A stretch of DNA of 64,000 nucleotides, from positions 2,459,849 to 2,523,848 of the forward strand of contig OY781067.2 in assembly GCA_963676265.2 (NCBI GenBank), written 5' to 3'. Below, piece after piece: positions 49,939 to 63,522 of the stretch. Origin of the DNA: an uncultured Draconibacterium sp. (GTDB taxonomy: Bacteria > Bacteroidota > Bacteroidia > Bacteroidales > Prolixibacteraceae). Positions within the stretch are counted from its first letter, which is position 1. Each line of letters opens with the position of its first letter. Below the pieces are notes generated by a model that saw only the letters and a list, made by a program, of their open reading frames with translations, ran no database searches and was not told where the DNA came from. A program made the position numbers and the translations under genes.

Positions 49939-49977
49939 AATGCATATTTTTGCATCAATAATGAATATTTATTCAAT
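49939..49977 (+). promoter_or_regulatory. Tandem ARG boxes (ArgR operator) overlapping the argR promoter -7 box and start codon
   Basis: Box 1 (49939-49956) is AATGCATATTTTTGCATC. Box 2 (49960-49977) is AATGAATATTTATTCAAT, a perfect TGAAT-N4-ATTCA core. The two 18-bp boxes are separated by 3 bp, the classical spacing. Box 1 contains TATTTTTG (49945-49952, TAnnTTTG) and box 2 ends in the argR ATG. Confidence 0.75.
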
Positions 49978-50461
49978 GAAGAATAAAGCACAACGTCAAC
50001 TGGAAATAAGAAGAATCATTCAAAAAGGCAATGTTCACAGTCAGGAAGAGTTGCTACATGAACTAAAAGAAAATGGATTCGACTTAACACAGGCGACTTT
50101 ATCGCGCGATTTAAAAGTTTTACAGGTTGCCAAAGTTCCTCATCCGGCAAAAGGATATGTATATACCGTACCTGATGGCGGACAGTATGAAAAAGCAAAC
50201 AAAGCAGAACAAAATCGCGTAAATTACCTGGCTGACGGTTTTAAAGACCTTCAGTTTTCAGGTACCCTGGCAGTAGTAAAAACACTTCCGGGTTATGCAA
50301 GCAGTATTGCAGCAGTTATCGATCAGGCAAATCCCTGGGAAATAATAGGGACAATTGCCGGCGACGATACAATACTAATAATACAAAGAGAGGGAATATC
50401 GAAAAATGATTTAATGAGGGCATTAATACAAATAATGCCCAAGCTTAAAGAGAAATTGTAA
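49976..50461 (+). CDS. argR: Arginine repressor
   Basis: ORF 49940..50461. The start is taken at ATG 49976 (MKNKAQRQLEIRRII). Winged-helix N-terminus (TQATLSRDLK) and C-terminal GTIAGDDTILII arginine-binding motif. Confidence 0.9.
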   Translation: MKNKAQRQLEIRRIIQKGNVHSQEELLHELKENGFDLTQATLSRDLKVLQVAKVPHPAKGYVYTVPDGGQYEKANKAEQNRVNYLADGFKDLQFSGTLAVVKTLPGYASSIAAVIDQANPWEIIGTIAGDDTILIIQREGISKNDLMRALIQIMPKLKEKL

Positions 50462-50469
50462 TTCGGACG

Positions 50470-51126
50470 ATGAAGAGTTTGAAAAATATCAAAGTTGAAA
50501 TTGCCGACGAACGTCATTTAAAGTTCATCGACGACATAAACGATGCCATCGACAGTGCATCGAAACAACGCGGAACGGGTATTGCCCGTCGTACGTTTGA
50601 ATACCTGGCAGAAAAAATGAAGCAGGGCAAGGCTATCATCGCTCTTGAGAACGAGACATTTGCCGGTTTCTGTTATATAGAAACATGGCAGGAAAAAGGT
50701 TTTGTGGCGAATTCAGGATTAATTGTGGCTGAAGAATTCCGTGGAATTGGTCTGGCAAAGGAAATTAAGAAAAAGGCTTTTGAATTATCGAGAAAAAAAT
50801 ACCCTAATTCAAAAATTTTCGGATTAACAACCGGGCTGGCTGTAATGAAAATTAACCACGAACTGGGTTATCGTCCGGTAACTTTTTCAGAGTTAACCAT
50901 GGACGATCAATTTTGGAAAGGCTGTCAGGGATGTGTTAATCACGACATCCTGGAACGAACCGGAAGAACAAAATGTCTGTGCACCGGCATGCTTTATAAT
51001 CCGGAATGGGAAAAACCAACTTTCACCAATGGTAACGGAATAAGAAAACGCAGTTTGCTTGATCTAATTCCGAAACGCGTATCTGGAATAACAAGAAAAA
51101 AAAAACTATTAAATAAAAATAAATAG
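50470..51126 (+). CDS. GNAT-family N-acyltransferase of the arginine operon (candidate N-acylglutamate synthase)
   Basis: 218 aa. GNAT motif A region VAEEFRGIGLAKEIKKKAF. Positioned between argR and argG as in other Bacteroidota arg operons. Substrate not determinable from sequence. Confidence 0.7.
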   Translation: MKSLKNIKVEIADERHLKFIDDINDAIDSASKQRGTGIARRTFEYLAEKMKQGKAIIALENETFAGFCYIETWQEKGFVANSGLIVAEEFRGIGLAKEIKKKAFELSRKKYPNSKIFGLTTGLAVMKINHELGYRPVTFSELTMDDQFWKGCQGCVNHDILERTGRTKCLCTGMLYNPEWEKPTFTNGNGIRKRSLLDLIPKRVSGITRKKKLLNKNK

Positions 51127-51208
51127 AATGGCGGCTTTCATATAGAAACAGACAGCTACAGATTTTGGAATTAGAAATAGCCGTCATTCTTTTTAAAAAT
51201 ATTACAAC

Positions 51209-52402
51209 ATGAGTAAAAAATTGGTTTTGGCATTTAGCGGAGGTTTAGATACTTCATTCTGCGCTAAATACCTGAAAGAAGAGAAAGGTTTTGATGTTTA
51301 CACCGCCATTGCAAATACAGGCGGTTTTTCCGATGAAGAACTTAAAGCCATCGAGGAACGAGCGCTGGCCCTGGGAGCTATTGAGCATGTTACACTTGAT
51401 GTAACCAACGAATACTACGAAAAATGTATTCGTTATATGGTTTTCGGGAATGTGTTGCGTAATAATACCTACCCTATTTCAGTTAGTTCGGAACGTGCAT
51501 TTCAAGCTATTGCAACTATCGAATATGCCAAAAAAATCGGTGCCAAATATATTGCTCATGGCAGTACCGGTGCAGGAAACGACCAGATTCGTTTCGATCT
51601 CACTTTCCAGGTTTTAGCTCCTGAAATTGAAATTATTACACCAACCCGAGATATGCTTTTAACCCGCCAATACGAAATTGACTACTTAAAAAAATATGGT
51701 TATGAAGCTGATTTCACCAAAATGGAATATTCCATTAACCAGGGACTTTGGGGAACCAGTGTTGGTGGAAAAGAAACATTAACCACCAATAAAAATCTGC
51801 CGGAAGCAGCCTACCCAAGTCAATTGGAAGAAACCGGCGAAAAAACGATTGAGTTGGGATTCGAAAAAGGCGAGTTGATTTCGCTTGATGGAGAATTCTA
51901 CGAAAGCGGCCCCGAAATTATTCGCGCACTCGAAGCAGTGGCATCAAAATTTGCCATTGGCCGCGATACACACGTTGGCGATACCATTATTGGTATTAAA
52001 GGCCGCGTTGGTTTCGAAGCTGCAGCTCCGCTGATTACGATTAAAGCGCACCACCTGCTCGAGAAACATACCTTAACCAAATGGCAATCGTACTGGAAAG
52101 AACAACTGGGCAACTGGTACGGAATGTTCCTGCACGAGGCTATGTACCAGGAGCCGGTTATGCGTAACATCGAAGATTTCCTCGAATCAACCCAGGAAAA
52201 TGTAACAGGAAAGGTAATTGTAAAACTAAAACCTTACCATTTCGAATTAGTTGGAATTGAGTCGGAACATGATTTAATGAACTCTGGTTTTGGCCAATAT
52301 GGCGAAACGGTTGAAGCATGGACTGCAGACGACATAAAAGGATTCACAAAGATTTTATCGAATTCACTGAAAATCTACAATAAGGTAAACAATAAGTTGT
52401 AA
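51209..52402 (+). CDS. argG: Argininosuccinate synthase
   Basis: 397 aa; AFSGGLDTS ATP-binding motif. Confidence 0.95.
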   Translation: MSKKLVLAFSGGLDTSFCAKYLKEEKGFDVYTAIANTGGFSDEELKAIEERALALGAIEHVTLDVTNEYYEKCIRYMVFGNVLRNNTYPISVSSERAFQAIATIEYAKKIGAKYIAHGSTGAGNDQIRFDLTFQVLAPEIEIITPTRDMLLTRQYEIDYLKKYGYEADFTKMEYSINQGLWGTSVGGKETLTTNKNLPEAAYPSQLEETGEKTIELGFEKGELISLDGEFYESGPEIIRALEAVASKFAIGRDTHVGDTIIGIKGRVGFEAAAPLITIKAHHLLEKHTLTKWQSYWKEQLGNWYGMFLHEAMYQEPVMRNIEDFLESTQENVTGKVIVKLKPYHFELVGIESEHDLMNSGFGQYGETVEAWTADDIKGFTKILSNSLKIYNKVNNKL

Positions 52403-52486
52403 GAATGTTGAATGATGATTAACGAATACTGATTTAAGAAGGAAAAATCTGAAATCAAAAATCGTTAATCTACAATCGTTAATCAA
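52403..52486. repeat. Gene-less 84-nt heptad-periodic inverted-repeat element filling the argG-argC spacer
   Basis: Twelve in-phase heptads: GAATGTT GAATGAT GATTAAC GAATACT GATTTAA GAAGGAA AAATCTG AAATCAA AAATCGT TAATCTA CAATCGT TAATCAA. It shares its 16-mer and 12-mer blocks with the carA-carB element. Confidence 0.85.
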
Positions 52487-53455
52487 ATGATTAAAGTTGG
52501 AATAATAGGAGGAGCCGGATATACAGCCGGAGAGTTGTTGAGAATTTTACTGAATCATCCGTTGGCAGAAATTGGTTTTGTCCAAAGTACCAGTAATGCC
52601 GGAAATCTGATCTCTGATGTTCATATTGATTTATTGGGCGAAACTGAAATCCGTTTTACCGATCAAATGCCGTTCGACGAAGTTGATGTAATTTTCCTTT
52701 GCATGGGGCATGGCAAGTCGATTGAATTTATGGAGAAAAATTCTTTCCCAAAATTTTTAAAAATTATTGATTTAAGCCACGACTTCAGGTTGAAAAGAGA
52801 AGGCAACAATTTTGTTTATGGCTTACCTGAATTAAATCGTGAAGATATAGAATCGTCGGAAAGAATTGCCAATCCCGGTTGTTTTGCCACCGGTATCCAG
52901 TTGGCTCTTTTACCACTTGCAGCAGCCGGATTATTACAAGATGAAGTTCATGTGCAGGCCATAACCGGGTCAACAGGTGCAGGCCAGAAACCAACAGCTA
53001 CTTCGCATTTCAGTTGGAGAAGCAGTAATGTTTCGGCTTACAAGATTTTTCAGCACCAGCACGAAGGAGAAATTCTGCAAAGCCTGACTCAATTGCAACC
53101 CGATTTTGAAAAAGATTTCAATTTTGTGCCCATCCGAGGAAATCACACACGCGGTATTTTTGTATCGTGCTATACCAAATTCGATGGAACGCTGAAAGAG
53201 GCTAACGAATTATATGAAGATTATTACGCCGGTCATCCGTTTGTATTTGTAACCGATAAAAACCCGGGAGTAAAACAAGTAGTAAATACCAACAAAGGCG
53301 TTATTTATTTGGAAAAACACGAAAATAAACTGGTTGTTATCAGTTTAACCGACAACTTAATAAAGGGCGCATCCGGACAAGCGGTTCAAAATATGAACCT
53401 GATGTTTGGGCTGGATGAAAAAACCGGCCTGAGTTTAAAACCGGTTGCTTTTTAA
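52487..53455 (+). CDS. argC: N-acyl-gamma-glutamyl-phosphate reductase
   Basis: 322 aa. GAGYTAGELLRIL NAD(P) motif and catalytic Cys in NPGCFATG. Confidence 0.93.
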   Translation: MIKVGIIGGAGYTAGELLRILLNHPLAEIGFVQSTSNAGNLISDVHIDLLGETEIRFTDQMPFDEVDVIFLCMGHGKSIEFMEKNSFPKFLKIIDLSHDFRLKREGNNFVYGLPELNREDIESSERIANPGCFATGIQLALLPLAAAGLLQDEVHVQAITGSTGAGQKPTATSHFSWRSSNVSAYKIFQHQHEGEILQSLTQLQPDFEKDFNFVPIRGNHTRGIFVSCYTKFDGTLKEANELYEDYYAGHPFVFVTDKNPGVKQVVNTNKGVIYLEKHENKLVVISLTDNLIKGASGQAVQNMNLMFGLDEKTGLSLKPVAF

Positions 53456-53614
53456 ATATTGCACCGTCCTTTAGGGCGGTGATCTGAAACAAGAAAGCAA
53501 GATGGCTTCAGCCTTTAACCATCAAAATTAAAGGCTAAAGCCAAAATGCAATGAATAAATCAGACACCAAGCTAAAGCATGGTGCAAAAAATAAGAACTA
53601 AAAAACAGGAACGA

Positions 53615-53635
53615 CTTCTGTCTTCCGACTTCAAG
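53615..53635 (+). repeat. (CTTCNNN)x3 array immediately upstream of argD
   Basis: CTTCTGT CTTCCGA CTTCAAG, with CTTC at 53615, 53622 and 53629. ATG is at 53638. Confidence 0.7.
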
Positions 53636-53637
53636 AT

Positions 53638-54777
53638 ATGAAACTATTTGACGTTTATCCACTATTTGATATAACCCCGGTAAAAGCTGAAGGATGTTAT
53701 GTTTGGGATGCCGACGGTAAAAAATACCTCGACCTTTACGGAGGCCATGCGGTAATTTCAATCGGACACAGCCACCCTGCTTACGTTAAAAAAATCTCAG
53801 AGCAGCTTTCTCAAATCGGATTTTATTCCAATTCGGTACAGAATCCTCTTCAAAAAGAGTTGGCTGAAAAACTAGGAAAATTATCCGGTTGCGAAAATTA
53901 CCAGCTTTTCCTTTGCAACTCGGGAGCAGAAGCCAACGAAAATGCATTGAAACTGGCATCTTTCATTACCGGTAAAAAGAAAATAATCAGTTATAAAAAA
54001 GGATTCCACGGTCGTACTTCGGCGGCAGTAGCCATCACCGATAATCCTAAAATTATAGCTCCGGTTAATGAAACTGAAAATGCTATAATATTGCCTTTTA
54101 ATGATATCAAGGCCACTGAGGAAGTATTGAAACAAGGCGATGTTGCCGCGGTTATTGTTGAGGGAATTCAGGGGATTGGCGGAATCCATGTTCCGGATAC
54201 CGAATTCCTGAAAAAACTGAAACAGTTAACCGAAAAATACGTGGCCGTTCTTATTCTGGATGAAATCCAGTCGGGTTACGGACGAAGTGGAAGATTTTTT
54301 GCTTACCAGTACACCGATATTCATCCCGACATTGTTACCATGGCCAAAGGGATGGGTAACGGATTTCCTATCGGCGGAGTACTTATTCAGCCAGAGATTG
54401 AGCCGTGGTATGGTATGCTAGGAACAACCTTTGGAGGTAATCACCTGGCATGTGCTGCTGCCATATCGGTTCTGGATGTAATCAAGGATGAAAAGCTGGT
54501 AGAAAATGCCGAAGAAGTTGGTTCTTACCTCATGGAAAAACTCTCGGCTATGAATGCAGAATTTGAGGTCCGTGGTGAAGGTTTAATGATTGGTCTCGAA
54601 TTTAAACAACCAATAAAAGAAATACGACAGAAACTACTTTTTGAATACGGAATATTTACTGGCGTTTCAGGACAAAATATAATCAGACTGTTGCCTCCGT
54701 TAAGTTTAACGAAAGAACAGGCTGATCAATTTTTGACTGCATTTGAGAAGGTTTATGCAGATTTCGATATTGTTTAA
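53638..54777 (+). CDS. argD: Acetyl/succinyl-ornithine aminotransferase (class III PLP aminotransferase)
   Basis: 379 aa; LILDEIQSGYGRSG and TMAKGMGNGFP (PLP Lys) motifs. Confidence 0.88.
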   Translation: MKLFDVYPLFDITPVKAEGCYVWDADGKKYLDLYGGHAVISIGHSHPAYVKKISEQLSQIGFYSNSVQNPLQKELAEKLGKLSGCENYQLFLCNSGAEANENALKLASFITGKKKIISYKKGFHGRTSAAVAITDNPKIIAPVNETENAIILPFNDIKATEEVLKQGDVAAVIVEGIQGIGGIHVPDTEFLKKLKQLTEKYVAVLILDEIQSGYGRSGRFFAYQYTDIHPDIVTMAKGMGNGFPIGGVLIQPEIEPWYGMLGTTFGGNHLACAAAISVLDVIKDEKLVENAEEVGSYLMEKLSAMNAEFEVRGEGLMIGLEFKQPIKEIRQKLLFEYGIFTGVSGQNIIRLLPPLSLTKEQADQFLTAFEKVYADFDIV

Positions 54778-54915
54778 AGGAAAATAACTGACAAAAGTCA
54801 TATTTTTCTATTTTTGCAAAATGAAACGAGCATAAATGAAGATTTAAAGATTTATCAAAAATATGCTCGCGACATCCGTCAGCTGACGGACCATTAATAA
54901 AACAATACAAAACGA

Positions 54916-55710
54916 ATGGAAAATAAAAAAATAGCAATTATCGGAGTAGGAAACATGGGTGGCGCTATAGCTATTGGATTGGTAAAATCGGGATCGGTTT
55001 CACCAACTGATATTTTTGTTTCCGACAGAAAAGAATCGACACTCAAAAAAATGAAAGATATGGGTATTCATGCTTCTGAAGACAATCTGGAAGCAGCAAA
55101 AGATGCTGATGTAATCATTGTAGCTGTAAAACCATATCATATCGAAGGTGTAATTAATGATTTAAAACCGATTCTGTCGCCCGATAAAATCTTAATTTCT
55201 ATTGTTGCCGGAGTTGGCATTGAAGACCTGGGCAATATGGCAGGAGAAATTCCAATTTTCCGGGTAATGCCAAACACTGCCATTGCTCTGCAGGAATCGC
55301 TTACCTGTATTTCTGCCAATGGGCACACCGAGCCACATCGCGAATTTGTGGTTGAATTATTCAACAAACTGGGTATAACAATTGAAATCCCTGAAGAACT
55401 AATGGCAGCAGCTACAGTTCTGTCATCATGTGGTATTGCTTACGCATTGCGTTATATCCGTGCAGCAATGCAGGGTGGAATTGAAATTGGATTCAGTGCT
55501 GAAATGGCACAGTTAATTACCGCTCAAACGGTGAAAGGCGCCACAGAATTACTGTTGCAATCCGGACATCATCCTGAATGGGAAATCGACAAAGTAACCA
55601 CTCCAATGGGTGTAACTATTACAGGCCTGAACGAAATGGAACACAAAGGATTTAGTTCTTCTTTGATCCAGGGAGTTATGGCTTCATATAAAAAGATTAA
55701 GGACAAATAA
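54916..55710 (+). CDS. proC: Pyrroline-5-carboxylate reductase
   Basis: 264 aa. IGVGNMGGAI Rossmann motif and C-terminal TTPMGVTITG dimerisation-domain motif. Confidence 0.9.
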   Translation: MENKKIAIIGVGNMGGAIAIGLVKSGSVSPTDIFVSDRKESTLKKMKDMGIHASEDNLEAAKDADVIIVAVKPYHIEGVINDLKPILSPDKILISIVAGVGIEDLGNMAGEIPIFRVMPNTAIALQESLTCISANGHTEPHREFVVELFNKLGITIEIPEELMAAATVLSSCGIAYALRYIRAAMQGGIEIGFSAEMAQLITAQTVKGATELLLQSGHHPEWEIDKVTTPMGVTITGLNEMEHKGFSSSLIQGVMASYKKIKDK

Positions 55711-55716
55711 GACATT

Positions 55717-56823
55717 GTGCAAAGTCGCTATCAGAAAATAACAGTTAAAGTTGGCAGTAATGTTCTTGCAAAAAAGGACGGTACCTTAAATGTATCGCGC
55801 ATTGCACATATTGTCGACCAAATTGCTTTTCTCCATAAAAACGGAGTAGAAGTGGTGCTGGTATCTTCCGGTGCAGTGGCTGCGGGCCGGGCTGTAATGC
55901 GCGAAACAAAAAAGTCGGATGCCGTATCACAGCGACAACTATGGGCAGCACTTGGCCAGGTGAAATTAATTTCCCGTTATTCTGATTTTTTCCAGGAAGA
56001 CGGGCTCACATGTGCACAGGTGCTTACAACCAAAGAAAATTTTTCGAGCCGGGGGCATTACCTCAACATGAAAAACTGCATTACTACCCTGCTTGAAAAT
56101 AAAGTTATACCTATTGTAAACGAAAACGACACCATTTCTGTAACAGAATTAATGTTTACTGATAACGATGAATTATCAGGGCTGATTGCTTCTATGGTAG
56201 ATTCTGAAGCATTGATTATTCTGAGCAACATTGACGGTGTATTTACCGCCCACCCCGACAGTGAAGGGGCAGAGTTGATTGAAACAATCGACACCTCAGA
56301 CAGAGAACCTGAAAATGCCATTTCATCGCGACAGTCGAATTTTGGAAGAGGTGGAATGCTGACCAAATTCCGGATTGCAAAAAAAGTTGCCGGCGACGGG
56401 ATTGGAGTTCATGTGGCAAACGGCACACGCGAAAATGTACTTATCGATTTGGTTGATAAATCGAAAAACTTAAAACATACCTACTTTGTGCCTAACCAAA
56501 AGCCTTCGAGTGGCGTAAAAAAATGGATTGGATACTCCGATGGTTTTACAAAAGGTCAGGTAATTATTAACGAAGGAGCAGCGAAAGCACTGATTTCAGA
56601 AAAAGCAGTAAGCTTATTGCCTGTGGGAATAACAAAAGTAGAAAGAGAATTTAAAAAAGGAGATCTGATAAAAATACTGGACAATTCGGGAGGAACAATT
56701 GGAATTGGGAAAGCCTCCTACGGATCAGATAAAATTGAAAAAGAAAAACAATCGGATAAACAGAAGCCGGTTGTTCATTACGATTATTTGTATTTAGAAA
56801 ATAAAACAAACGGAAGTTCTTAG
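55717..56823 (+). CDS. proB: Glutamate 5-kinase (with C-terminal PUA domain)
   Basis: 368 aa, GTG start. KVGSNVL, VLVSSGAVAAG and NENDT motifs, plus a PUA-like C-terminus. Confidence 0.92.
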   Translation: MQSRYQKITVKVGSNVLAKKDGTLNVSRIAHIVDQIAFLHKNGVEVVLVSSGAVAAGRAVMRETKKSDAVSQRQLWAALGQVKLISRYSDFFQEDGLTCAQVLTTKENFSSRGHYLNMKNCITTLLENKVIPIVNENDTISVTELMFTDNDELSGLIASMVDSEALIILSNIDGVFTAHPDSEGAELIETIDTSDREPENAISSRQSNFGRGGMLTKFRIAKKVAGDGIGVHVANGTRENVLIDLVDKSKNLKHTYFVPNQKPSSGVKKWIGYSDGFTKGQVIINEGAAKALISEKAVSLLPVGITKVEREFKKGDLIKILDNSGGTIGIGKASYGSDKIEKEKQSDKQKPVVHYDYLYLENKTNGSS

Positions 56824-57046
56824 CCTGAATGACATAAGATTCGGGTGAATCCCGGCTGCGGCAAATTTATTTGATGAAACATTCAAAAAAGCCGTAGCCG
56901 CTGTAACAAACAGGAATAAAGAAATTATTAGGATTTGACATATTGAAAATATAAAAACAGCTCAGGGTACCTTTACCGGCTTGCTTTCAGTGCAAGCTAT
57001 TCATTCACCCTTTTTTTGATGCCTTAATTTGAACATATTCTGAGCT

Positions 57047-57080
57047 CCCTCTCCCTCCCCCGGGAGAGGGTTATTTTTTT
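57047..57080 (+). terminator. Strong intrinsic terminator inside the proB-proA spacer
   Basis: CCCTCTCCC (57047-57055) / GGGAGAGGG (57062-57070), a 9-bp G/C-rich stem with a 6-nt loop, followed by TTATTTTTTT. Confidence 0.8.
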
Positions 57081-57183
57081 ATAGAAAATTGTAATAAGGA
57101 AAAACGAGTAAGAAAGTAAATATCGCTCAGAAGATCTTTCAACTGTCATATTCGGTTTCTTATGAAGTGAAAAGTAACATAAC

Positions 57184-58434
57184 ATGAAGATAGAACAGCA
57201 GCTAAAAAAAACTCTGGATGCCTCGCGCAAACTTAATCTAATTGAGGAGGATCTGGTAACGCAGGTTCTGCTTGATTTGGCAAAACAGGCGCGTAATAAC
57301 ACTGATTTCATTCTGGCAGAGAATCAAAAAGATTTAGACAGAATGGATCCTGCTGATCCCAAATTCGACCGTTTAAAATTAACAGAAGAGAGAATTGAAG
57401 GTATCGCTTCCGATATGGAAAATGTGGCACGCCTTGAAAGTCCTGTTGGAAGAATTCTGAAAGAAACTACCAGAGATAATGGTTTAAAAATTACAAAAGT
57501 GTCGGTTCCGTTTGGAGTAATTGGAATTATATACGAAGCTCGTCCGAACGTTACTTTCGATGTTTTTGCGCTGTGTTTGAAGTCGGGAAATGCCTGCGTT
57601 TTAAAGGGGGGCAGCGACGCAATTTACTCTAACGAAGCTATCGTTTCTGTTATTCGCAAAGTATTAACGAAATTTAATCTCGATGAAAATACCGTAACCT
57701 TGCTCCCTGCAGGACGCGAGGAAACCAACGAAATGTTGCGTGCTCACGGATACATCGATTTGATTATTCCGCGAGGAAGTCAAGGCCTGATAAATTTTGT
57801 ACGCGAAAATGCGACTATTCCGGTAATTGAAACCGGAGCCGGAATCTGCCACACTTATTTCGATGAGTTTGGCGATGCCGAAAAAGGCCGCGAAATTATT
57901 TTCAATGCAAAAACCCGCCGCGTTTCGGTCTGTAATGCGCTGGATTGTTTGGTAATTCACGAAAGTCGTTTGGATGAATTAAATGAATTTGCCAAAAAAC
58001 TTTCCGAAGAACAGGTGGTGATTTATGCCGACGAAAAAGCATACAAACAAATTCAGTGGATCTATCCGGCAGAGCTATTATTTGAAGCCACTGAAGAATC
58101 ATTCGGAACAGAATTCTTATCGATGAAAATGTCGATAAAAACAGTTAGTTCTTTCAACGAAGCTTTGGATCATATTAATACACACTCATCAAAACACAGC
58201 GAGGCCATCATTTCGGAGGATGCTGATCGAATTCAAATTTTCCGCAAAATGGTGGATGCTTCTTCTGTGTATTCAAATACATCAACCGCTTATACCGACG
58301 GTGCACAATTCGGATTGGGAGCTGAAATTGGCATCAGCACGCAAAAATTGCACGCCCGAGGCCCGATGGCACTGGAAGAATTGACCAGCTACAAATGGAT
58401 AATTGAAGGAAACGGACAAGTACGTCCAAGATAA
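57184..58434 (+). CDS. proA: Glutamate-5-semialdehyde dehydrogenase
   Basis: 416 aa. Catalytic Cys context [14 protein letters not shown] and [10 protein letters not shown] motif. Confidence 0.95.
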
Positions 58435-58511
58435 AAGGCAAAAGTAAAAAGGCAAAATATAAACATTGGAAGCTAAAACTTCGGTCTTCGTGCTTCCATC
58501 TTCAAACTTAT
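58435..58511. repeat. Heptad-periodic spacer (AAGNNNN then NNCTTNN) between proA and argF'
   Basis: AAGGCAA AAGTAAA AAGGCAA AATATAA ACATTGG AAGCTAA | AACTTCG GTCTTCG TGCTTCC ATCTTCA AACTTAT. Confidence 0.75.
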
Positions 58512-58514
58512 AAT

Positions 58515-59462
58515 ATGAAAAACTTTACATCAGTAAAAGATATTCCCAGCATTGAAAAAGCGCTGGCAACCGCATTCGAAGTAAAAAAGAACAAGTTTGG
58601 ATTTCAGCACCTGGGTAAAAACAAAACTATGGTTTTGGTATTTTTTAACTCAAGTTTGCGTACGCGTTTGAGTACACAAAAAGCAGCCATGAACATGGGC
58701 ATGAACACGATGGTGATGAACGTTAACGAAGACAGCTGGCAGCTGGAATCGGAAATGGGCGTAATTATGGACGGAAAAAATGCCGAACACCTGCGTGAAG
58801 CTATCCCGGTAATGGGAAAATACTGCGATGTTATTGGCGTGCGTGCTTTTGCCAAATTCGAAAAGCGTGAAGACGACTACGCTGAAAAAATATTGAGCCA
58901 GTTTGTTGAATATGCCGGCGTTCCAGTGGTAAGCATGGAAGCCGCCACCCGCCACCCGTTGCAAAGTTTTGCCGACCTGGTAACCATTGAAGAACACAAA
59001 AAGGTTGAAAAACCAAAAGTGGTTCTTACCTGGGCACCTCACCCGCGCGCTTTGCCGCAGGCTGTTCCAAACTCGTTTATTGAGTGGATGCGCGAAACCG
59101 ACTACGAACTGGTGGTTACTCACCCAAAAGGTTACGAACTGGCACCTGAATTTATAGGCGATGTAAAAGTGGAGTACGATCAGAAAAAAGCTTTTGAAGG
59201 AGCTGATTTTATTTATGCAAAAAACTGGGCGTCGTACACCGATTATGGCCAGGTTCTATCGAAAGATATGAGCTGGACAGTTGATGAAGCAAAAATGGCG
59301 TTAACAAATGATGCCAAATTTATGCACTGTCTGCCGGTACGTAGAAATATGATCGTTACTGATGGCGTTATCGACAGCCCGAATTCAATTGTTGTCGATG
59401 AAGCCTACAACCGCGAAATTACTGCCCAGGCAGTGTTGAAGATGATTCTTGAAAATGCTTAA
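58515..59462 (+). CDS. argF': N-acyl-L-ornithine carbamoyltransferase (ArgF' type; probably N-succinylornithine-specific)
   Basis: 315 aa. [16 protein letters not shown] carbamoyl-phosphate motif, [16 protein letters not shown] and HCLPVRRN motifs. Close to my recollection of the Bacteroides fragilis ArgF' sequence. Confidence 0.9.
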
Positions 59463-59506
59463 TTCTGCTACCTTTGAGGCCTTGCGGATGGAGAGAAATA
59501 AAAAAC

Positions 59507-60238
59507 ATGACCAAAAAAATAGAAATAATTCCTGCTATCGACCTGATTGACGCCAAATGCGTGCGACTTTCGCAGGGCGATTACAACCAGAAAACGGTGT
59601 ATAACGAGAATCCGCTGGAGGTTGCCAAAATGTTCGAAGATGCAGGAATCACACGTTTGCACCTTGTTGATTTGGACGGGGCAAAAGCTAAGCACATTGT
59701 AAACTATAAAGTACTGGAAACAATTGCCGGAAAAACCAATTTGGTGATCGACTTTGGCGGCGGATTAAAATCGGACAATGACCTGCAAATTGCTTTTAAC
59801 TCAGGGGCAGCAATGGTTACAGGCGGAAGTATTGCTGTAAAAGAGAAGGATACTTTTCTAAGCTGGCTGGAGAAATTCGGCAGCGAAAAGATTATTCTGG
59901 GTGCTGATGCCAAAGACGGTAATATTGCAGTTAGTGGCTGGCTGGAAACGACCGAATTGGCGGTTATCGATTTTATTTCAGAATTCCACAAACAGGGAAT
60001 CAGCAAAGTTATTTCAACAGATATTAGTCGCGACGGTATGCTGAGCGGTCCTTCTTTTGAACTGTATACTGACATTATGAAAACGCTTCCCGAAGTGGAA
60101 ATTATTGCCAGTGGCGGAATTGCCACCATGGACGACATATTAAAATTAGATGAAATGGGCGTTCCGGGTGTAATTACAGGAAAAGCCATTTATGAAAATC
60201 GCATAACTTTGAAAGAAATTGAAAAGTTCATTGCGTAA
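59507..60238 (+). CDS. hisA: ProFAR isomerase
   Basis: ORF 59474..60238. The start is taken at ATG 59507 ([13 protein letters not shown]). Motifs include HLVDLDGA and GGGL. Confidence 0.93.
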
Positions 60239-60249
60239 TGTAAATTTCA

Positions 60250-61155
60250 ATGAAAAAAGTATTCATTTCATCAACATATAAAGATCTAAAACATCATAGG
60301 ACGGAAATCTGGAAAAGGATCCAGAATTTAGATATTGAGGTTTTAGGGATGGAGAATTTTGGAGCTCGCAAAAGCTCTCCTCTTGAAACATGTCTTGAGG
60401 AAGTTGACAGAAGTGATATTTACATCGGAATTATTTCAATGTGCGCAGGTACAATTCATTCGGAACTTAAAAAATCTTACACCGAACTAGAATACCAAAG
60501 AGCACTTGAAAAAGGAAAAGACATCTGGATATATCTAATAGATGAGAATGATGGCGTTATAAAAGCTGGGGATATTGAATTTGGAGAACGGCAAGAATAT
60601 CTAAAAAAGTTTAAAGAGCGACTTAAGAGCCACACTGTTGATTTTTTTATTGATGAAAAAAACTTAGCAGAAAAGATATTTAAGAAACTCAAATCTGTCG
60701 CTCCTAAAATAAAAAAACTTGCAAAAAGACCCCAACAATTAGAATGCACCATTTTTAAATTTAAGTCCAAGAGATACAAATGGTACATATTTATGTCATT
60801 CTATAATCAATTACCTTACGAGATTTTTTCAGGTATTAATGATGACGATTATAATGGTATCCTGCTTCCTCAAAGTGTTTCAAATGGGATTGTTATAGAA
60901 AGTCAAGAGACTAAAAACATTAAACGCTATGACTTCCAGTATATTAATAAAAGAGGATACAAAACTACTTTAGAAGGAATCAACTATCCATTTATTCCAA
61001 CTATTTCTTCGTACGATAAACAAATCACAAAGCTGCTTCAAAACAATGTTTCGTTGTTGGTCATTTTGGAAGTTCTGAGAGAAATGCTCGTCGAAGATGA
61101 AGAACAAAAGATTTGGAAGAAGAATTTAACACAAATCATAAGAAGATTTAAATAA
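60250..61155 (+). CDS. Two-domain protein: N-terminal DUF4062 (TIR-like/flavodoxin-like) module plus a C-terminal module resembling the class II RNR C-terminal/TSCPD-type region
   Basis: 301 aa. N-terminus [19 protein letters not shown]...[13 protein letters not shown]...[24 protein letters not shown]-terminus [37 protein letters not shown]...[19 protein letters not shown]. Domain names are from memory and no search was possible. Sits 11 nt after hisA and 1 nt before hisF. Confidence 0.6.
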
Positions 61156-61156
61156 G

Positions 61157-61912
61157 ATGCTTGCAAAACGAATAATACCATGCCTCGATATCCGCAACGG
61201 ACAAACCGTCAAAGGAATCAATTTCGTAGATATTAAAGAAGTGGGCGATCCGGTGGAATTAGGCGCAAAATATGCTGCTGATGGTGCCGATGAACTTTGT
61301 TTCCTAGATATCACAGCGACACACGAAGGCCGCAAAACTTTTGTTGAACTGGTAAAACGTATTGCAGCACATATCAACATCCCGTTTACAGTTGGTGGTG
61401 GAATCAGCGAATTGAGCGATGCCGAAAAGCTATTAGCTGCAGGAGCTGATAAAATATCGATTAACTCATCAGCCGTTCGAAATCCAAAACTGATCGACGA
61501 CCTGGCACTGAATTTTGGAAGCCAGTTTGTGGTAGTTGCCATCGATGCGCGCGGCGATGAGAACGAACACTGGACAGTTACAGTAAACGGTGGCCGTATT
61601 CCAACCGACAAAGAATTATTTTCGTGGGCAAAAGAAGCAGAAGACCGTGGTGCGGGAGAAATCCTGTTTACCTCGATGAACCACGACGGAACTAAAAATG
61701 GTTTTGCCAATAAAGAGCTTTCGAAAATGGCCGATATGTTGAAGATTCCGATCATTGCATCGGGCGGAGCAGGTACCGAAGAACATTTTGTTGATGTTTT
61801 TACCAAGGGAAAAGCAGACGCCGGACTGGCTGCCAGTATCTTCCATTACAACGAAATACCAATTCCGGTTCTTAAGAAATACTTAAAAGAAAAAGGCATT
61901 GTAGTTCGATAG
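61157..61912 (+). CDS. hisF: Imidazole glycerol phosphate synthase, cyclase subunit
   Basis: 251 aa; [19 protein letters not shown] and SGGAG motifs. Confidence 0.96.
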
Positions 61913-61966
61913 CCAATCAAAATAGTAACTTCGCAGCACAATTACAGAATTAATAATTGCTCCGGG

Positions 61967-61987
61967 CTTCAGGCTTCGGACTTCCGA
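61967..61987 (+). repeat. (CTTCNNN)x3 array upstream of hisIE
   Basis: CTTCAGG CTTCGGA CTTCCGA, with CTTC at 61967, 61974 and 61981. ATG is at 61997. Confidence 0.7.
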
Positions 61988-61996
61988 CTAAAGATT

Positions 61997-62614
61997 ATGA
62001 GACAGCTAACAGATATTTCAACGATCGATTTCAACAAAATGGACGGATTAATTCCTGCCATCATTCAGGATGCCGAAACGCAAAATGTACTGATGTTGGG
62101 TTTTATGAACGAAGATGCCCTTGCAAAAACACAGGAAATTGGCAAAGTGACTTTTTTTAGTCGCACCAAAAACCGCCTGTGGACCAAAGGCGAGGAATCG
62201 GGAAATTTTCTGGATGTTGTTTCAATGGCAATTGATTGCGATAATGACACACTTTTGATAAAAGTAAATCCTGTAGGCCCGGTTTGCCACAAAGGCGACG
62301 ATACCTGTTTTGAAGAAACCAACTCGGGCAGCGATATTCAGTTCTTAACTTACTTGCAGGATTTTATAGACAAGCGCAAAGCAGAAATGCCTGAAGGTTC
62401 TTACACCACTTCCCTATTTCAAAAAGGAACACGAAAAATCACTCAAAAAGTTGGCGAAGAAGCAGTTGAAACAATTATTGGTGCAATGGCCAACGACGAT
62501 GAAAACTTCATATACGAAGCCGGAGATTTGCTTTATCACTTAATTGTGCTGCTTACACATAAAGGCTATCGCATTGAAGATATTGTTCGCGAGCTAAAAA
62601 AGAGACACAAGTAA
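61997..62614 (+). CDS. hisIE: Bifunctional phosphoribosyl-AMP cyclohydrolase / phosphoribosyl-ATP pyrophosphatase
   Basis: 205 aa. HisI region (SRTKNRLWTKGEESGN, CDNDTLL) followed by a HisE MazG-like helical region (EEAVETIIGA...DLLYHLIVLL). Confidence 0.93.
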   Translation: MRQLTDISTIDFNKMDGLIPAIIQDAETQNVLMLGFMNEDALAKTQEIGKVTFFSRTKNRLWTKGEESGNFLDVVSMAIDCDNDTLLIKVNPVGPVCHKGDDTCFEETNSGSDIQFLTYLQDFIDKRKAEMPEGSYTTSLFQKGTRKITQKVGEEAVETIIGAMANDDENFIYEAGDLLYHLIVLLTHKGYRIEDIVRELKKRHK

Positions 62615-62841
62615 GGAACTAAAAAACAACACCTTACAACAAAATAGCGTTATAAAATCGCAACTCCTAAAACTCGAATCAGAATATAATTCGCTGATTT
62701 TCAATATACCCTACAACATGGTTAAGAAACATAGTTCCATAACATAACTATAAAACATTGAAGATTACACTGTTATAATTAGGCTCGTTTAAAGTATAGT
62801 CCTTAGCTTTGTTATATCTTCTAACTTCAAAAAACCGTTTT

Positions 62842-63522
62842 ATGGAAACTCTAACCATTTGTCCAACCAGTACAGCAACCATCCTTGCTTGTCAGAAAAT
62901 TGCCAGAATTTTCAAAGAAAACATTTACGAATTGTCCAATGTACGTAGCGAATGGGATCCGGAGTATGCTACCTCGTTAAATGTGTGGATTGATGATACT
63001 ATTGAAAAACACTATTCCGACAATGTGGATGCAATTGCGAATGAAAGATACAGGCAATGGCACGAAATTATGGTAGCTGGATTACAACACCTGAAAGTTC
63101 TTCGTGCTTCAATGAAAGTAGATTTTAAAGACGACAAACAGTATCTAAAAGATTTCTTTCAGAAAACAGGCTACACCGACTATTTCAGCGATGCCAAGAA
63201 CGGCGATCATTTAAGTCTTTTCAAATTTCTGAAGACTTTTGCCGCTAACCTGGACGAACCAACCCGGCAGAAAATTGTTGAAAAAGGTTCGCTCGACTCT
63301 TTGTTTGATAAGATTCTTGCATGCGCAAACCGGGTTACTGAATTTGAAGATTGTTTTGTAGCGCTTGAAGAAGATAATGATCTTGACAACTATGGAAAAA
63401 AAGAAGTGGCTCGTATTTACGAAAGCATACAGGATATTTGCCGTATTGCCATTGCATATTTCCAGTTCGATCCGATTATGCGCGACAAGTTCAATTATTA
63501 CAAGGTTTTGGTAAACCTTTAA
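62842..63522 (+). CDS. Hypothetical all-helical protein
   Basis: ORF 62809..63522. The start is taken at ATG 62842 (METLTICPT...). No recognisable motif. Followed by an intrinsic terminator. Confidence 0.5.
   Translation: METLTICPTSTATILACQKIARIFKENIYELSNVRSEWDPEYATSLNVWIDDTIEKHYSDNVDAIANERYRQWHEIMVAGLQHLKVLRASMKVDFKDDKQYLKDFFQKTGYTDYFSDAKNGDHLSLFKFLKTFAANLDEPTRQKIVEKGSLDSLFDKILACANRVTEFEDCFVALEEDNDLDNYGKKEVARIYESIQDICRIAIAYFQFDPIMRDKFNYYKVLVNL

Follow-up and report, generated by a model that had tools for sequence, protein, structure and literature searches.

We examined a 64,000-nucleotide stretch of DNA from an uncultured Draconibacterium sp. (contig OY781067.2, positions 2,459,849 to 2,523,848; hereafter, the window), in which a gene for a 301-residue protein, here termed X, is inserted between the histidine biosynthesis genes hisA and hisF. 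The open reading frame (ORF) of X was taken from the ORF list, starts with an ATG and occupies positions 60250..61155 of the forward strand, on which the arg, pro and his genes and the other sequence features located below between them also lie; its product combines an N-terminal DUF4062 (TIR-like) domain with a reductase-type C-terminal AUX domain. The 5′ neighbor, hisA (59504..60238; Pfam His_biosynth, E=3.4e-72; alternative TTG start at 59474), ends in a TAA codon (60236-60238) and is followed, after a spacer of 11 nt (60239..60249), by the ATG of X. The TAA stop codon of X (61153-61155) is separated by a single base (61156) from the ATG of hisF (61157..61912; His_biosynth, E=1e-76), and hisIE (61997..62614; Pfam PRA-CH and PRA-PH) is the final his gene. 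Direct reading of the sequence and the Pfam matches of the flanks thus confirm the arrangement described in an earlier note on this DNA. The genes form part of a same-strand cluster (49940-62614) comprising argR, a GNAT gene, argG, argC, argD, proC, proB, proA, an ornithine-carbamoyltransferase-like gene, hisA, X, hisF and hisIE.

A pattern scan revealed no promoter- or terminator-like sites in the two spacers flanking X, in line with what the earlier note had reported, and sigma-70-like and terminator-like sites occurred at chance frequency in scans of the window. Bacteroidetes -7 motifs were likewise found at chance level (78 observed vs 81.6 expected). Two of the pattern matches are positioned such that they might serve this gene group. 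The motif TACCTTTG (59469..59476), 28 nt 5′ of the hisA ATG, is a weak candidate for the start of a hisA-X-hisF-hisIE transcript, and TAACTTTG (60204..60211), in the 3′ end of hisA and 39 nt 5′ of the X ATG, might at best be a weak internal promoter for X, a TTTG -33 element being absent at the appropriate distance. X is therefore likely co-transcribed with hisA, hisF and hisIE, and unless an internal promoter is present, transcription of hisF must run through X. We detected no meaningful direct or inverted repeats around X, no transposon ends or target duplications and no integrase near it, and neither a tRNA nor an Rfam family in the whole window; this chromosomal copy thus bears no mobile-element signature, unlike the plasmid or mobile carriage of systems of the Eva01 type (see below).

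With a GC content of 0.318 (0.29 at third codon positions, GC3), compared to 0.42 for hisA and 0.44 for hisF, X has the lowest value among 46 long ORFs of the window (z=-3.15; for GC3, z=-1.87). Its synonymous-codon choice is nevertheless typical for the window (z=+0.14), and the A/T-richness therefore stems mostly from an amino acid composition rich in K, I, N, Y and F, not from foreign codons. Of the compositional argument in the earlier note, the low GC content thus stands, while the notion of a deviating codon usage does not.

Residues 1-150 of X (60250..60699) form a DUF4062/TIR-like α-β domain with a trailing helix (residues 136-150), as judged from Pfam, PDB and Foldseek comparisons. 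Pfam PF13271 matched residues 3-85 with E=1.2e-23 and 83.5 bits (cut-off 24.7), covering the full profile (1-82). The sole relative of solved structure found by sequence was the TIR/DUF4062 domain of KpSwz (10wc_A; E=3.3e-8; X residues 3-126). An AlphaFold2 model of full-length X (mean predicted local distance difference test [pLDDT] score 87.6; predicted TM score [pTM] 0.55) exhibits five β-α units in residues 2-150, with pLDDT mostly >80, followed by a low-confidence interdomain linker (residues 151-159; 60700..60726; pLDDT 63 in block 151-160). Foldseek searches retrieved plant and bacterial TIR domains, among them that of RPS4 (4c6t_D; probability 1.0; TMt 0.59); 7xoz_A and 5teb_A were further TIR entries, and RPP1, SPARTA, TIR-STING and SpbK were among the proteins represented. 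Nucleoside 2-deoxyribosyltransferase and DNPH1 were matched as well. The DUF4062/TIR-like assignment, which the earlier note had made, is thus firmly backed by profile and structure comparisons.

DUF4062 can no longer be regarded as a domain without a described function. KpSwz, the Swarozyc protein of Klebsiella pneumoniae, requires both E97 and its AUX domain for defence (Osinski et al., bioRxiv 10.64898/2026.05.01.722283; PDB 10wc, 11cq, 11cv); it forms an autoinhibited oligomer, and binding of the AUX domain to the phage portal elicits E97-dependent NAD+ hydrolysis and abortive infection (bioRxiv 10.64898/2026.05.01.722283). In the Evangelion protein Eva01, the F11A and E87A exchanges and truncation of the AUX domain abolish defence (Ibarra-Chavez et al., bioRxiv 10.64898/2026.06.25.731849), and NAD+ drops on infection (bioRxiv 10.64898/2026.06.25.731849). 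NAD+ glycohydrolase (NADase) activity of DUF4062 domains has been reported for KpSwz, TEP1 and, indirectly, Eva01 (2026 preprints).

The comparison of X with these proteins draws on an alignment of 159 diverse DUF4062 domains drawn from genome and viral loci, an alignment of the X family (A1) and the mutational data of the preprints. The active-site motif of X, S76-Y77-T78-E79-L80-E81-Y82 (60475..60495), contains two glutamates. The column of E81 holds Glu in 158 of the 159 domains, followed by Y or F in 156, and E81 is invariant within the X family. F5 (60262..60264), the conserved aromatic residue of strand 1, is equivalent to F11 of Eva01, and its column is Phe in 158 of the 159 domains; E81-Y82 correspond to Eva01 E87-Y88. 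S7, S8, E35 and G67 of X are also essentially invariant in both alignments. In alignment A1, residues 100-160 contain no invariant Trp as a candidate equivalent of W162, which belongs to the Q/W/E motif of Eva01 at the DUF4062-AUX junction; the conserved X-family residues of this region are H128, T129, D131 and F133.

E79 of X aligns with the catalytic E97 of KpSwz, and its column contains E in 97 and Q in 46 of the 159 domains. While the window protein has both E79 and E81, most X-family members combine Q79 with E81. KpSwz, conversely, is the only one of the 159 domains that lacks the Glu of the E-[Y/F] pair, bearing A-F instead, with E97 two residues earlier; the catalytic Glu may thus differ between lineages of the DUF4062 superfamily. 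By these alignments, the DUF4062 active-site signature is intact in X, and the attention that the earlier note drew to the glutamate in TELEY appears justified for either residue. By analogy with the characterized proteins, the N-terminal domain of X is most likely an NAD+ glycohydrolase.

A search of ~5.8 billion protein clusters yielded three classes of matches to X: about 60 full-length sequences, a few covering only the N-terminal part and a large set covering only residues ~158-301. The last set corresponds to the AUX domain (residues 160-301; 60727..61152; phmmer, alignments A2 and A6, structure model). Besides proteins of ~235 residues that are described below, it comprises the C-termini of class II ribonucleotide reductases (P0067-P0085; phmmer E=2.8e-29 to 1e-24; 36-39% identity over ~145 residues), which are adenosylcobalamin-dependent enzymes of Bacteroidales/Prolixibacteraceae. 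The alignment is co-linear, from the RP motif just past the barrel strand GVTVYRDGSR to the start of a six-Cys zinc finger. R160, P161 and E191 of X are invariant or nearly so in the reductase-module alignment, and the motifs RP...PYEIF and YDF...GYKTT.EG are shared. Conservation is highest in residues 226-243 (60925..60978; alignments A2 and A6): columns R71, D73, F74, G81, Y82, K83, T84, T85, E87 and G88 of alignment A2 are near-invariant, and Y227, D228, G236 and G243 are kept in >=90% of 40 sequences in alignment A6. As this stretch is near-invariant in three architectures (the X family, the reductase modules and stand-alone 235-aa module proteins), it appears to have retained a binding function, and we presume that it constitutes a ligand- or partner-binding site.

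In contrast to the reductases, X has no PF02867 catalytic barrel according to Pfam, and where the enzymes continue past the module with C..C...C..C..C....C, X lacks the six-Cys zinc finger and redox tail, ending in ...IIRRFK with a single non-conserved Cys in its C-terminal half. We thus conclude from the alignments that the AUX domain is homologous to the folded post-barrel module of Bacteroidota class II reductases. The similarity to this module proposed in the earlier note therefore holds (E ~1e-28, 36-39% identity), whereas the accompanying label "TSCPD" is weak and transitive. Pfam TSCPD (PF12637) did not match X or its C-terminal half at E up to 1, which led us to reject a direct TSCPD assignment of X; the alignment contains no TSCPD motif, Cys quartet or Fe-S-type cysteines in the AUX domain; and among 40 proteins, 35 of them with a reductase-type module, 19 matched the TSCPD profile, all below the 22.8-bit cut-off (best E=0.0015). 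Our search of the TSCPD literature returned nothing relevant.

Modeled alone, the AUX domain is confidently predicted (pLDDT 94.1; pTM 0.89) to consist of two three-stranded β-meanders and three helices. Foldseek retrieved no significant match to this model in the PDB (best E=0.11; IscU not recovered), and a profile built from the module alignment retrieved nothing but coiled-coil noise from the PDB. Among predicted viral structures, the best match was a fragment of a phage class II reductase (probability 1.0; TM ~0.5; root-mean-square deviation [rmsd] 3.0 Å), followed by the C-terminus of a Roseobacter-phage B12 reductase (probability 0.97). According to published work, long C-termini of class II reductases consist of an IscU-like domain, which in some cases carries insertions or duplications, and a subsequent zinc finger; for the IscU-like domain, a role in oligomerisation has been proposed (PMC5704485, PMC9669993). 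In Stackebrandtia NrdJd, the whole C-terminal domain is required for dATP/dGTP-induced tetramers/hexamers and for electron delivery (PMC5704485, PMC9669993). The label "IscU-like" for the module is taken from this literature and not from our Foldseek searches.

A module-profile search of 1.84 billion representatives returned 1281 module-bearing proteins. The architectures of the top 150 were read, and comprise the reductases, proteins with a leader and the module, and DUF4062-module fusions (four representatives, including P0002 and P0013). The leader-module type corresponds to abundant stand-alone proteins of ~235 residues (P0086-P0120), mostly from metagenome assemblies of the European Nucleotide Archive, with an 85-aa leader and no Cys tail. 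The end of such a gene (L170:6001-6708; also L171 and L172) overlaps the start of folB by 4 nt, with amidase, MlaD and dnaA genes nearby and no reductase barrel gene adjacent. The module therefore leads an independent life, probably a housekeeping one.

The X family is small, with roughly 60 full-length sequence clusters; among the best 80 loci from 185,579 species genomes (one genome per species), at least six carry a full-length member. All readable contexts outside the clade described below are away from his operons, mostly beside integrases, restriction enzymes and toxins. In Polaribacter staleyi, the neighbors are an IS3 transposase, a DNA methylase, an MmeI-type restriction enzyme and a helicase, and in Carboxylicivirga they are integrases, a primase, a Phage_CRI protein and Fic. 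Other members have a Mrr restriction enzyme and Fic immediately 5′, Nmad2/Nmad3/Vsr neighbors, or a PemK island. In an Ignavibacteriales metagenome-assembled genome (L011:4810-8909), the start codon of the family gene shares 4 nt with the end of a gene for a 1064-aa MmeI/Eco57I-type type IIG restriction-modification enzyme, and the pair sits 3′ of an integrase in an integrase island; this arrangement suggests a two-gene defence operon. A sister group (P0061-P0066, P0070; ~325 aa), one protein of which is annotated by the Joint Genome Institute as a tetratricopeptide repeat (TPR) protein, has a DUF4062 half ~50% identical to that of X and a different C-terminal region, which points to swapping of AUX domains on a closely related core.

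The four proteins closest to X share 100, 66, 61 and 58% of their residues with it (the identical one is on record as P0001, from a 6.46-Mb contig), and all are encoded at the hisA|hisF junction of related organisms. The gene orders in related contigs are hisA-X-hisF-hisE (L003), hisH-[IVP]-hisA-[SatD]-[DUF3307]-X (L004) and hisA-X-hisF (L253); the window has no hisH 5′ of hisA, unlike L004, and in L003 the gene after hisF (L003:3236-3550) comprises only the PRA-PH (hisE) half, the hisI half being missing there. In a neighbor-joining tree, the four his-junction members form a clade, with 57-66% identity within it and <=52% to other members, and the low GC content is kept in every copy. A common junction and a single clade imply that the insertion is old and inherited. 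We therefore rejected recent horizontal transfer into this genome; the earlier note had taken the composition to suggest horizontal acquisition. Given the clade and its divergence, the simplest history is one old insertion that was then passed on vertically, with the protein evolving fast and the gene being lost now and then.

Rates of change at the locus support this picture. The window hisA is 90% identical to that of L003, 81% to that of L004 and 85% to that of L090, and its hisF is 95% identical to both the L003 and L090 genes. Between the window and L003, X is only 66% identical, compared to 90% for hisA and 95% for hisF. In this comparison, synonymous changes have reached saturation in X, hisA and hisF alike, and the ratio of nonsynonymous to synonymous substitution rates (dN/dS) is 0.125 for X (N-terminal half, 0.119; C-terminal half, 0.124), 0.021 for hisA and 0.024 for hisF. 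X is thus under purifying selection, which indicates a functional gene, and the value for its C-terminal half suggests that the AUX domain is required for function. At the same time, its dN/dS is 5-6 times that of hisA and hisF. Genes that are under pressure to diversify rapidly, immune genes among them, show a pattern of this kind.

We surveyed the junction in 80 metagenomic relatives of hisF. The hisA-hisF gap is <130 nt, and hence empty, in most of them; in some, it holds other cargo, namely SatD-like and DUF3307 genes, a four-helix-bundle (23S-rRNA-IVP) fragment, or GIY-YIG, DinB-like or DUF559 genes. L090 carries the SatD-DUF3307 pair and lacks X. As even very close relatives differ in whether they carry X, SatD-DUF3307, both or neither, the junction appears to be permissive for insertion and loss. 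PADLOC returned nothing useful on the relatives' cargo (SatD-like, DUF3307, toxin pair, IVP protein), with no match for SatD-like/DUF3307. "Alien" or ORFan genes in Bacteroidota his operons have been reported before, including a four-helix-bundle gene at hisA-hisF and a ParE toxin gene at hisH-hisA (Del Duca et al. 2021, PMC8305728). That study resembles ours in finding non-histidine genes in his junctions with short spacers suggestive of co-transcription; it differs in listing no DUF4062 gene and in reading the alien genes as relics of operon assembly. With such genes already published, the placement of X is unusual for an immune gene but does not represent a new type of genome feature.

Several side observations concern neighboring junctions. 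In L003 (320-807), a gene pair (71 aa and 90 aa; weak ParE_toxin match) lies between the carbamoyltransferase gene and hisA. In L090 (6805-8028), the closest relative without X, an ORF of 407 aa, P-loop ATPase-like by eye, fills the hisF|hisIE junction, so that accessory cargo is not confined to a single junction of this cluster. The palindrome AACCTTTTTAGGTT, present in two to three copies 5′ of the SatD-like/DUF3307 pair (L090:4600-4690 and L004:2680-2730), may be an operator for that pair.

Based on these results, we consider it reasonably probable, with appreciable room for other explanations, that X acts against phages by abortive infection as a single polypeptide and belongs to the DUF4062 class represented by Swarozyc and Evangelion. 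The notion of a single-gene effector or sensor riding on his transcription, raised in the earlier note, is thereby the best-supported reading, as the 2026 preprints document NADase defence by single DUF4062 genes. By analogy with these systems, the N-terminal domain would act as an NAD+ glycohydrolase that is held inactive in the resting cell as an autoinhibited oligomer, and the AUX domain, whose origin is the folded (IscU-like/TSCPD-like) module behind the barrel of class II reductases in Bacteroidota, would serve as a trigger-recognition and assembly module. Binding of the AUX domain to a partner or ligand associated with infection would cause the TIR-like domains to rearrange into an active assembly, NAD+ would be depleted, and the infected cell would die or arrest before phage release. 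Transcription with hisA, hisF and hisIE might maintain the autoinhibited sentinel at a steady, metabolism-linked housekeeping level. As the AUX domain retains the most conserved motif of the module, it probably binds the same thing as the module does; among the candidate triggers are thus phage factors that interact with the C-terminus of class II reductases, as well as the reductase as such and a ligand of its module.

Comparison with characterized systems delimits this proposal. Like KpSwz (326 aa), X (301 aa) is a single polypeptide in which an N-terminal DUF4062 domain is followed by a helix, a linker and an AUX domain, with a core of ~150 residues and an AUX domain of ~140 residues in X; the two proteins also share a Glu at the E97 position (E79 in X), and relatives of both occur near restriction enzymes and on mobile islands. 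They differ in that KpSwz has A-F where X has E81-Y82, in that X lies inside a his cluster and outside any defence island, and in their AUX domains: that of KpSwz has a helix-turn-helix/winged fold and wraps around the phage portal, while that of X is β-rich and of reductase type, with six strands and three helices predicted, and sequence similarity between the proteins stops at X residue 126. With Eva01, X shares a conserved DUF4062 core joined to a diversified AUX domain and the equivalents of F11 and E87-Y88, and the architecture of X is compatible with the model in which the AUX domain is the sensor and DUF4062 the effector that depletes NAD+. Eva01, however, is encoded by a staphylococcal plasmid gene, has a short AUX domain, and replication/recombination proteins are implicated as its trigger, whereas X is chromosomal, resides in a Bacteroidota biosynthetic cluster and has a reductase-derived AUX domain. 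Thoeris ThsB, SPARTA TIR-APAZ and TIR-STING belong to the same fold class and follow the same logic of oligomerisation-activated NAD+ consumption, but represent other sequence families and are multi-component or signal-producing; X has no partner gene. We found a reductase-type AUX domain in neither the Swarozyc nor the Evangelion preprint, nor in one supplement text, and the DUF4062-reductase module combination adds a third AUX type beside the two studied.

A number of observations speak against an immune role. The steps of NADase chemistry, autoinhibition, AUX sensing and abortive infection are drawn from the literature on relatives, while the computations made here cover the identity of both domains, the catalytic signature, purifying selection, the genomic contexts of the family and the residence of one clade in the his junction. 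With Q in most of the X family at the position of the KpSwz catalytic Glu, catalysis hinges on the assignment of E81. The AUX domain is unrelated to the two characterized AUX types, which leaves its sensor role to analogy, and no other immune-effector fusion of the module was evident in the top 150 representatives, so that the module does not seem to be a recurrent defence sensor. X adjoins arg, pro and his biosynthetic genes and not a defence island, and five further family contexts were uninformative. PADLOC (2023) gave no match to X (nor did NCBIfam), and no full-length X-family member was found on IMG/VR viral contigs, which contain many DUF4062 N-terminal domains and on which the module motif was not confirmed. 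Finally, constitutive read-through expression of a NADase could be costly for the host, autoinhibition being an assumption in the case of X.

Three other explanations have to be weighed against these points. X might be a non-immune regulator or accessory of deoxynucleotide synthesis, its AUX domain docking on a class II reductase or binding the module ligand and its TIR-like domain processing NAD(P)+ or a nucleotide, thereby linking redox or nucleotide status to reductase function. The near-identical motif that the AUX domain shares with reductase and stand-alone modules, the location of the latter near folB and dnaA, the nucleotide-dependent oligomerisation and electron delivery mediated by the Stackebrandtia NrdJd C-terminal domain and the stable inheritance of X in a biosynthetic cluster of four taxa would all suit such a role. 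It accords poorly with the extremely patchy spread of the family (at least six full-length members among the best 80 loci), its residence elsewhere on islands with integrases and restriction enzymes, the fast evolution of X and the missing Cys/zinc-finger tail that does the redox work; moreover, the characterized bacterial DUF4062 proteins are all defence NADases. We regard this role as unlikely. Slightly less probable still, in our estimate, is that X is a selfish or residual toxin-like passenger of a permissive junction, of little gain to the host and retained because its excision would disturb hisF expression. The same or neighboring junctions do carry a ParE-type toxin pair, 23S-rRNA-IVP genes, GIY-YIG, DUF559 and the 407-aa ORF; the missing transposon ends and target duplications indicate an old, fixed insertion; and L090, with 95% hisF identity, does without X, marking the gene as dispensable. 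Yet a dN/dS of 0.12 at saturated synonymous divergence and the preservation of both the ORF and the catalytic motif in four diverged taxa argue for selection on the protein itself, and the two domains are constrained to the same extent (0.119 and 0.124).

The location of X also invites the idea that it acts in or on the histidine pathway. In keeping with the nucleotide-linked intermediate considered in the earlier note, it might cleave or transfer the ribosyl group of phosphoribosyl pyrophosphate (PRPP), ATP, phosphoribosyl-ATP (PR-ATP) or aminoimidazole carboxamide ribotide (AICAR); alternatively, it might produce a His-ADPR-type signal from NAD+ and histidine, the end product of the pathway. 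Tight packing between hisA and hisF in four taxa would fit, enzymes of the TIR/2-deoxyribosyltransferase superfamily act on N-glycosidic bonds, and some TIR domains make His-ADPR according to a reference cited by Osinski et al. (bioRxiv 10.64898/2026.05.01.722283). But every family member with a readable context outside a single clade is found away from his genes, hisA directly abuts hisF in most relatives, the junction holds unrelated cargo in other lineages, no adjacent partner effector could read a His-ADPR signal, and TEP1 and KpSwz yield only ADP-ribose and nicotinamide. Action on nucleotide-linked his intermediates is thus unsupported and a role in histidine chemistry is unlikely, to a degree that we would give it very little credence. 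All three alternatives are less well supported than an immune function, because the family is patchy, fast-evolving and located outside his operons except for one clade, and because both domains are under purifying selection.

Within the immune reading, a more specific and rather speculative version, which we hold to be a minor possibility, is that the AUX domain represents an "integrated decoy" or guard copied from the host class II reductase, such that module-specific engagement by a phage factor or a nucleotide-state change would fire the NADase. If true, X would be a bacterial analog, built on a TIR-like effector, of the integrated decoys of plant nucleotide-binding leucine-rich repeat (NLR) receptors, and identification of its trigger would at the same time show what the IscU-like/TSCPD-like domain of class II reductases does. 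More generally, DUF4062 NADases were recognized as immune effectors only in 2026, with two AUX sensor types studied so far; as the AUX domain of X derives from a housekeeping enzyme, knowledge of the trigger might shed light on the sensing of phages as well as on class II reductases. In X, a gene of the immune NADase type appears to be stably inherited in an amino acid biosynthesis unit, outside defence islands. Discovery pipelines based on such islands miss genes of this kind, whose expression would follow metabolic regulation, and the "alien genes" of Bacteroidota his operons include accessory and conflict-type cargo, whose turnover is apparent even among close relatives.

An additional ORF of 237 aa (62809-63522) lies 3′ of hisIE in the window. 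It has no Pfam match; homologs are found at this position in L003 (83% identity) and, with weaker similarity, in L091 (41%).

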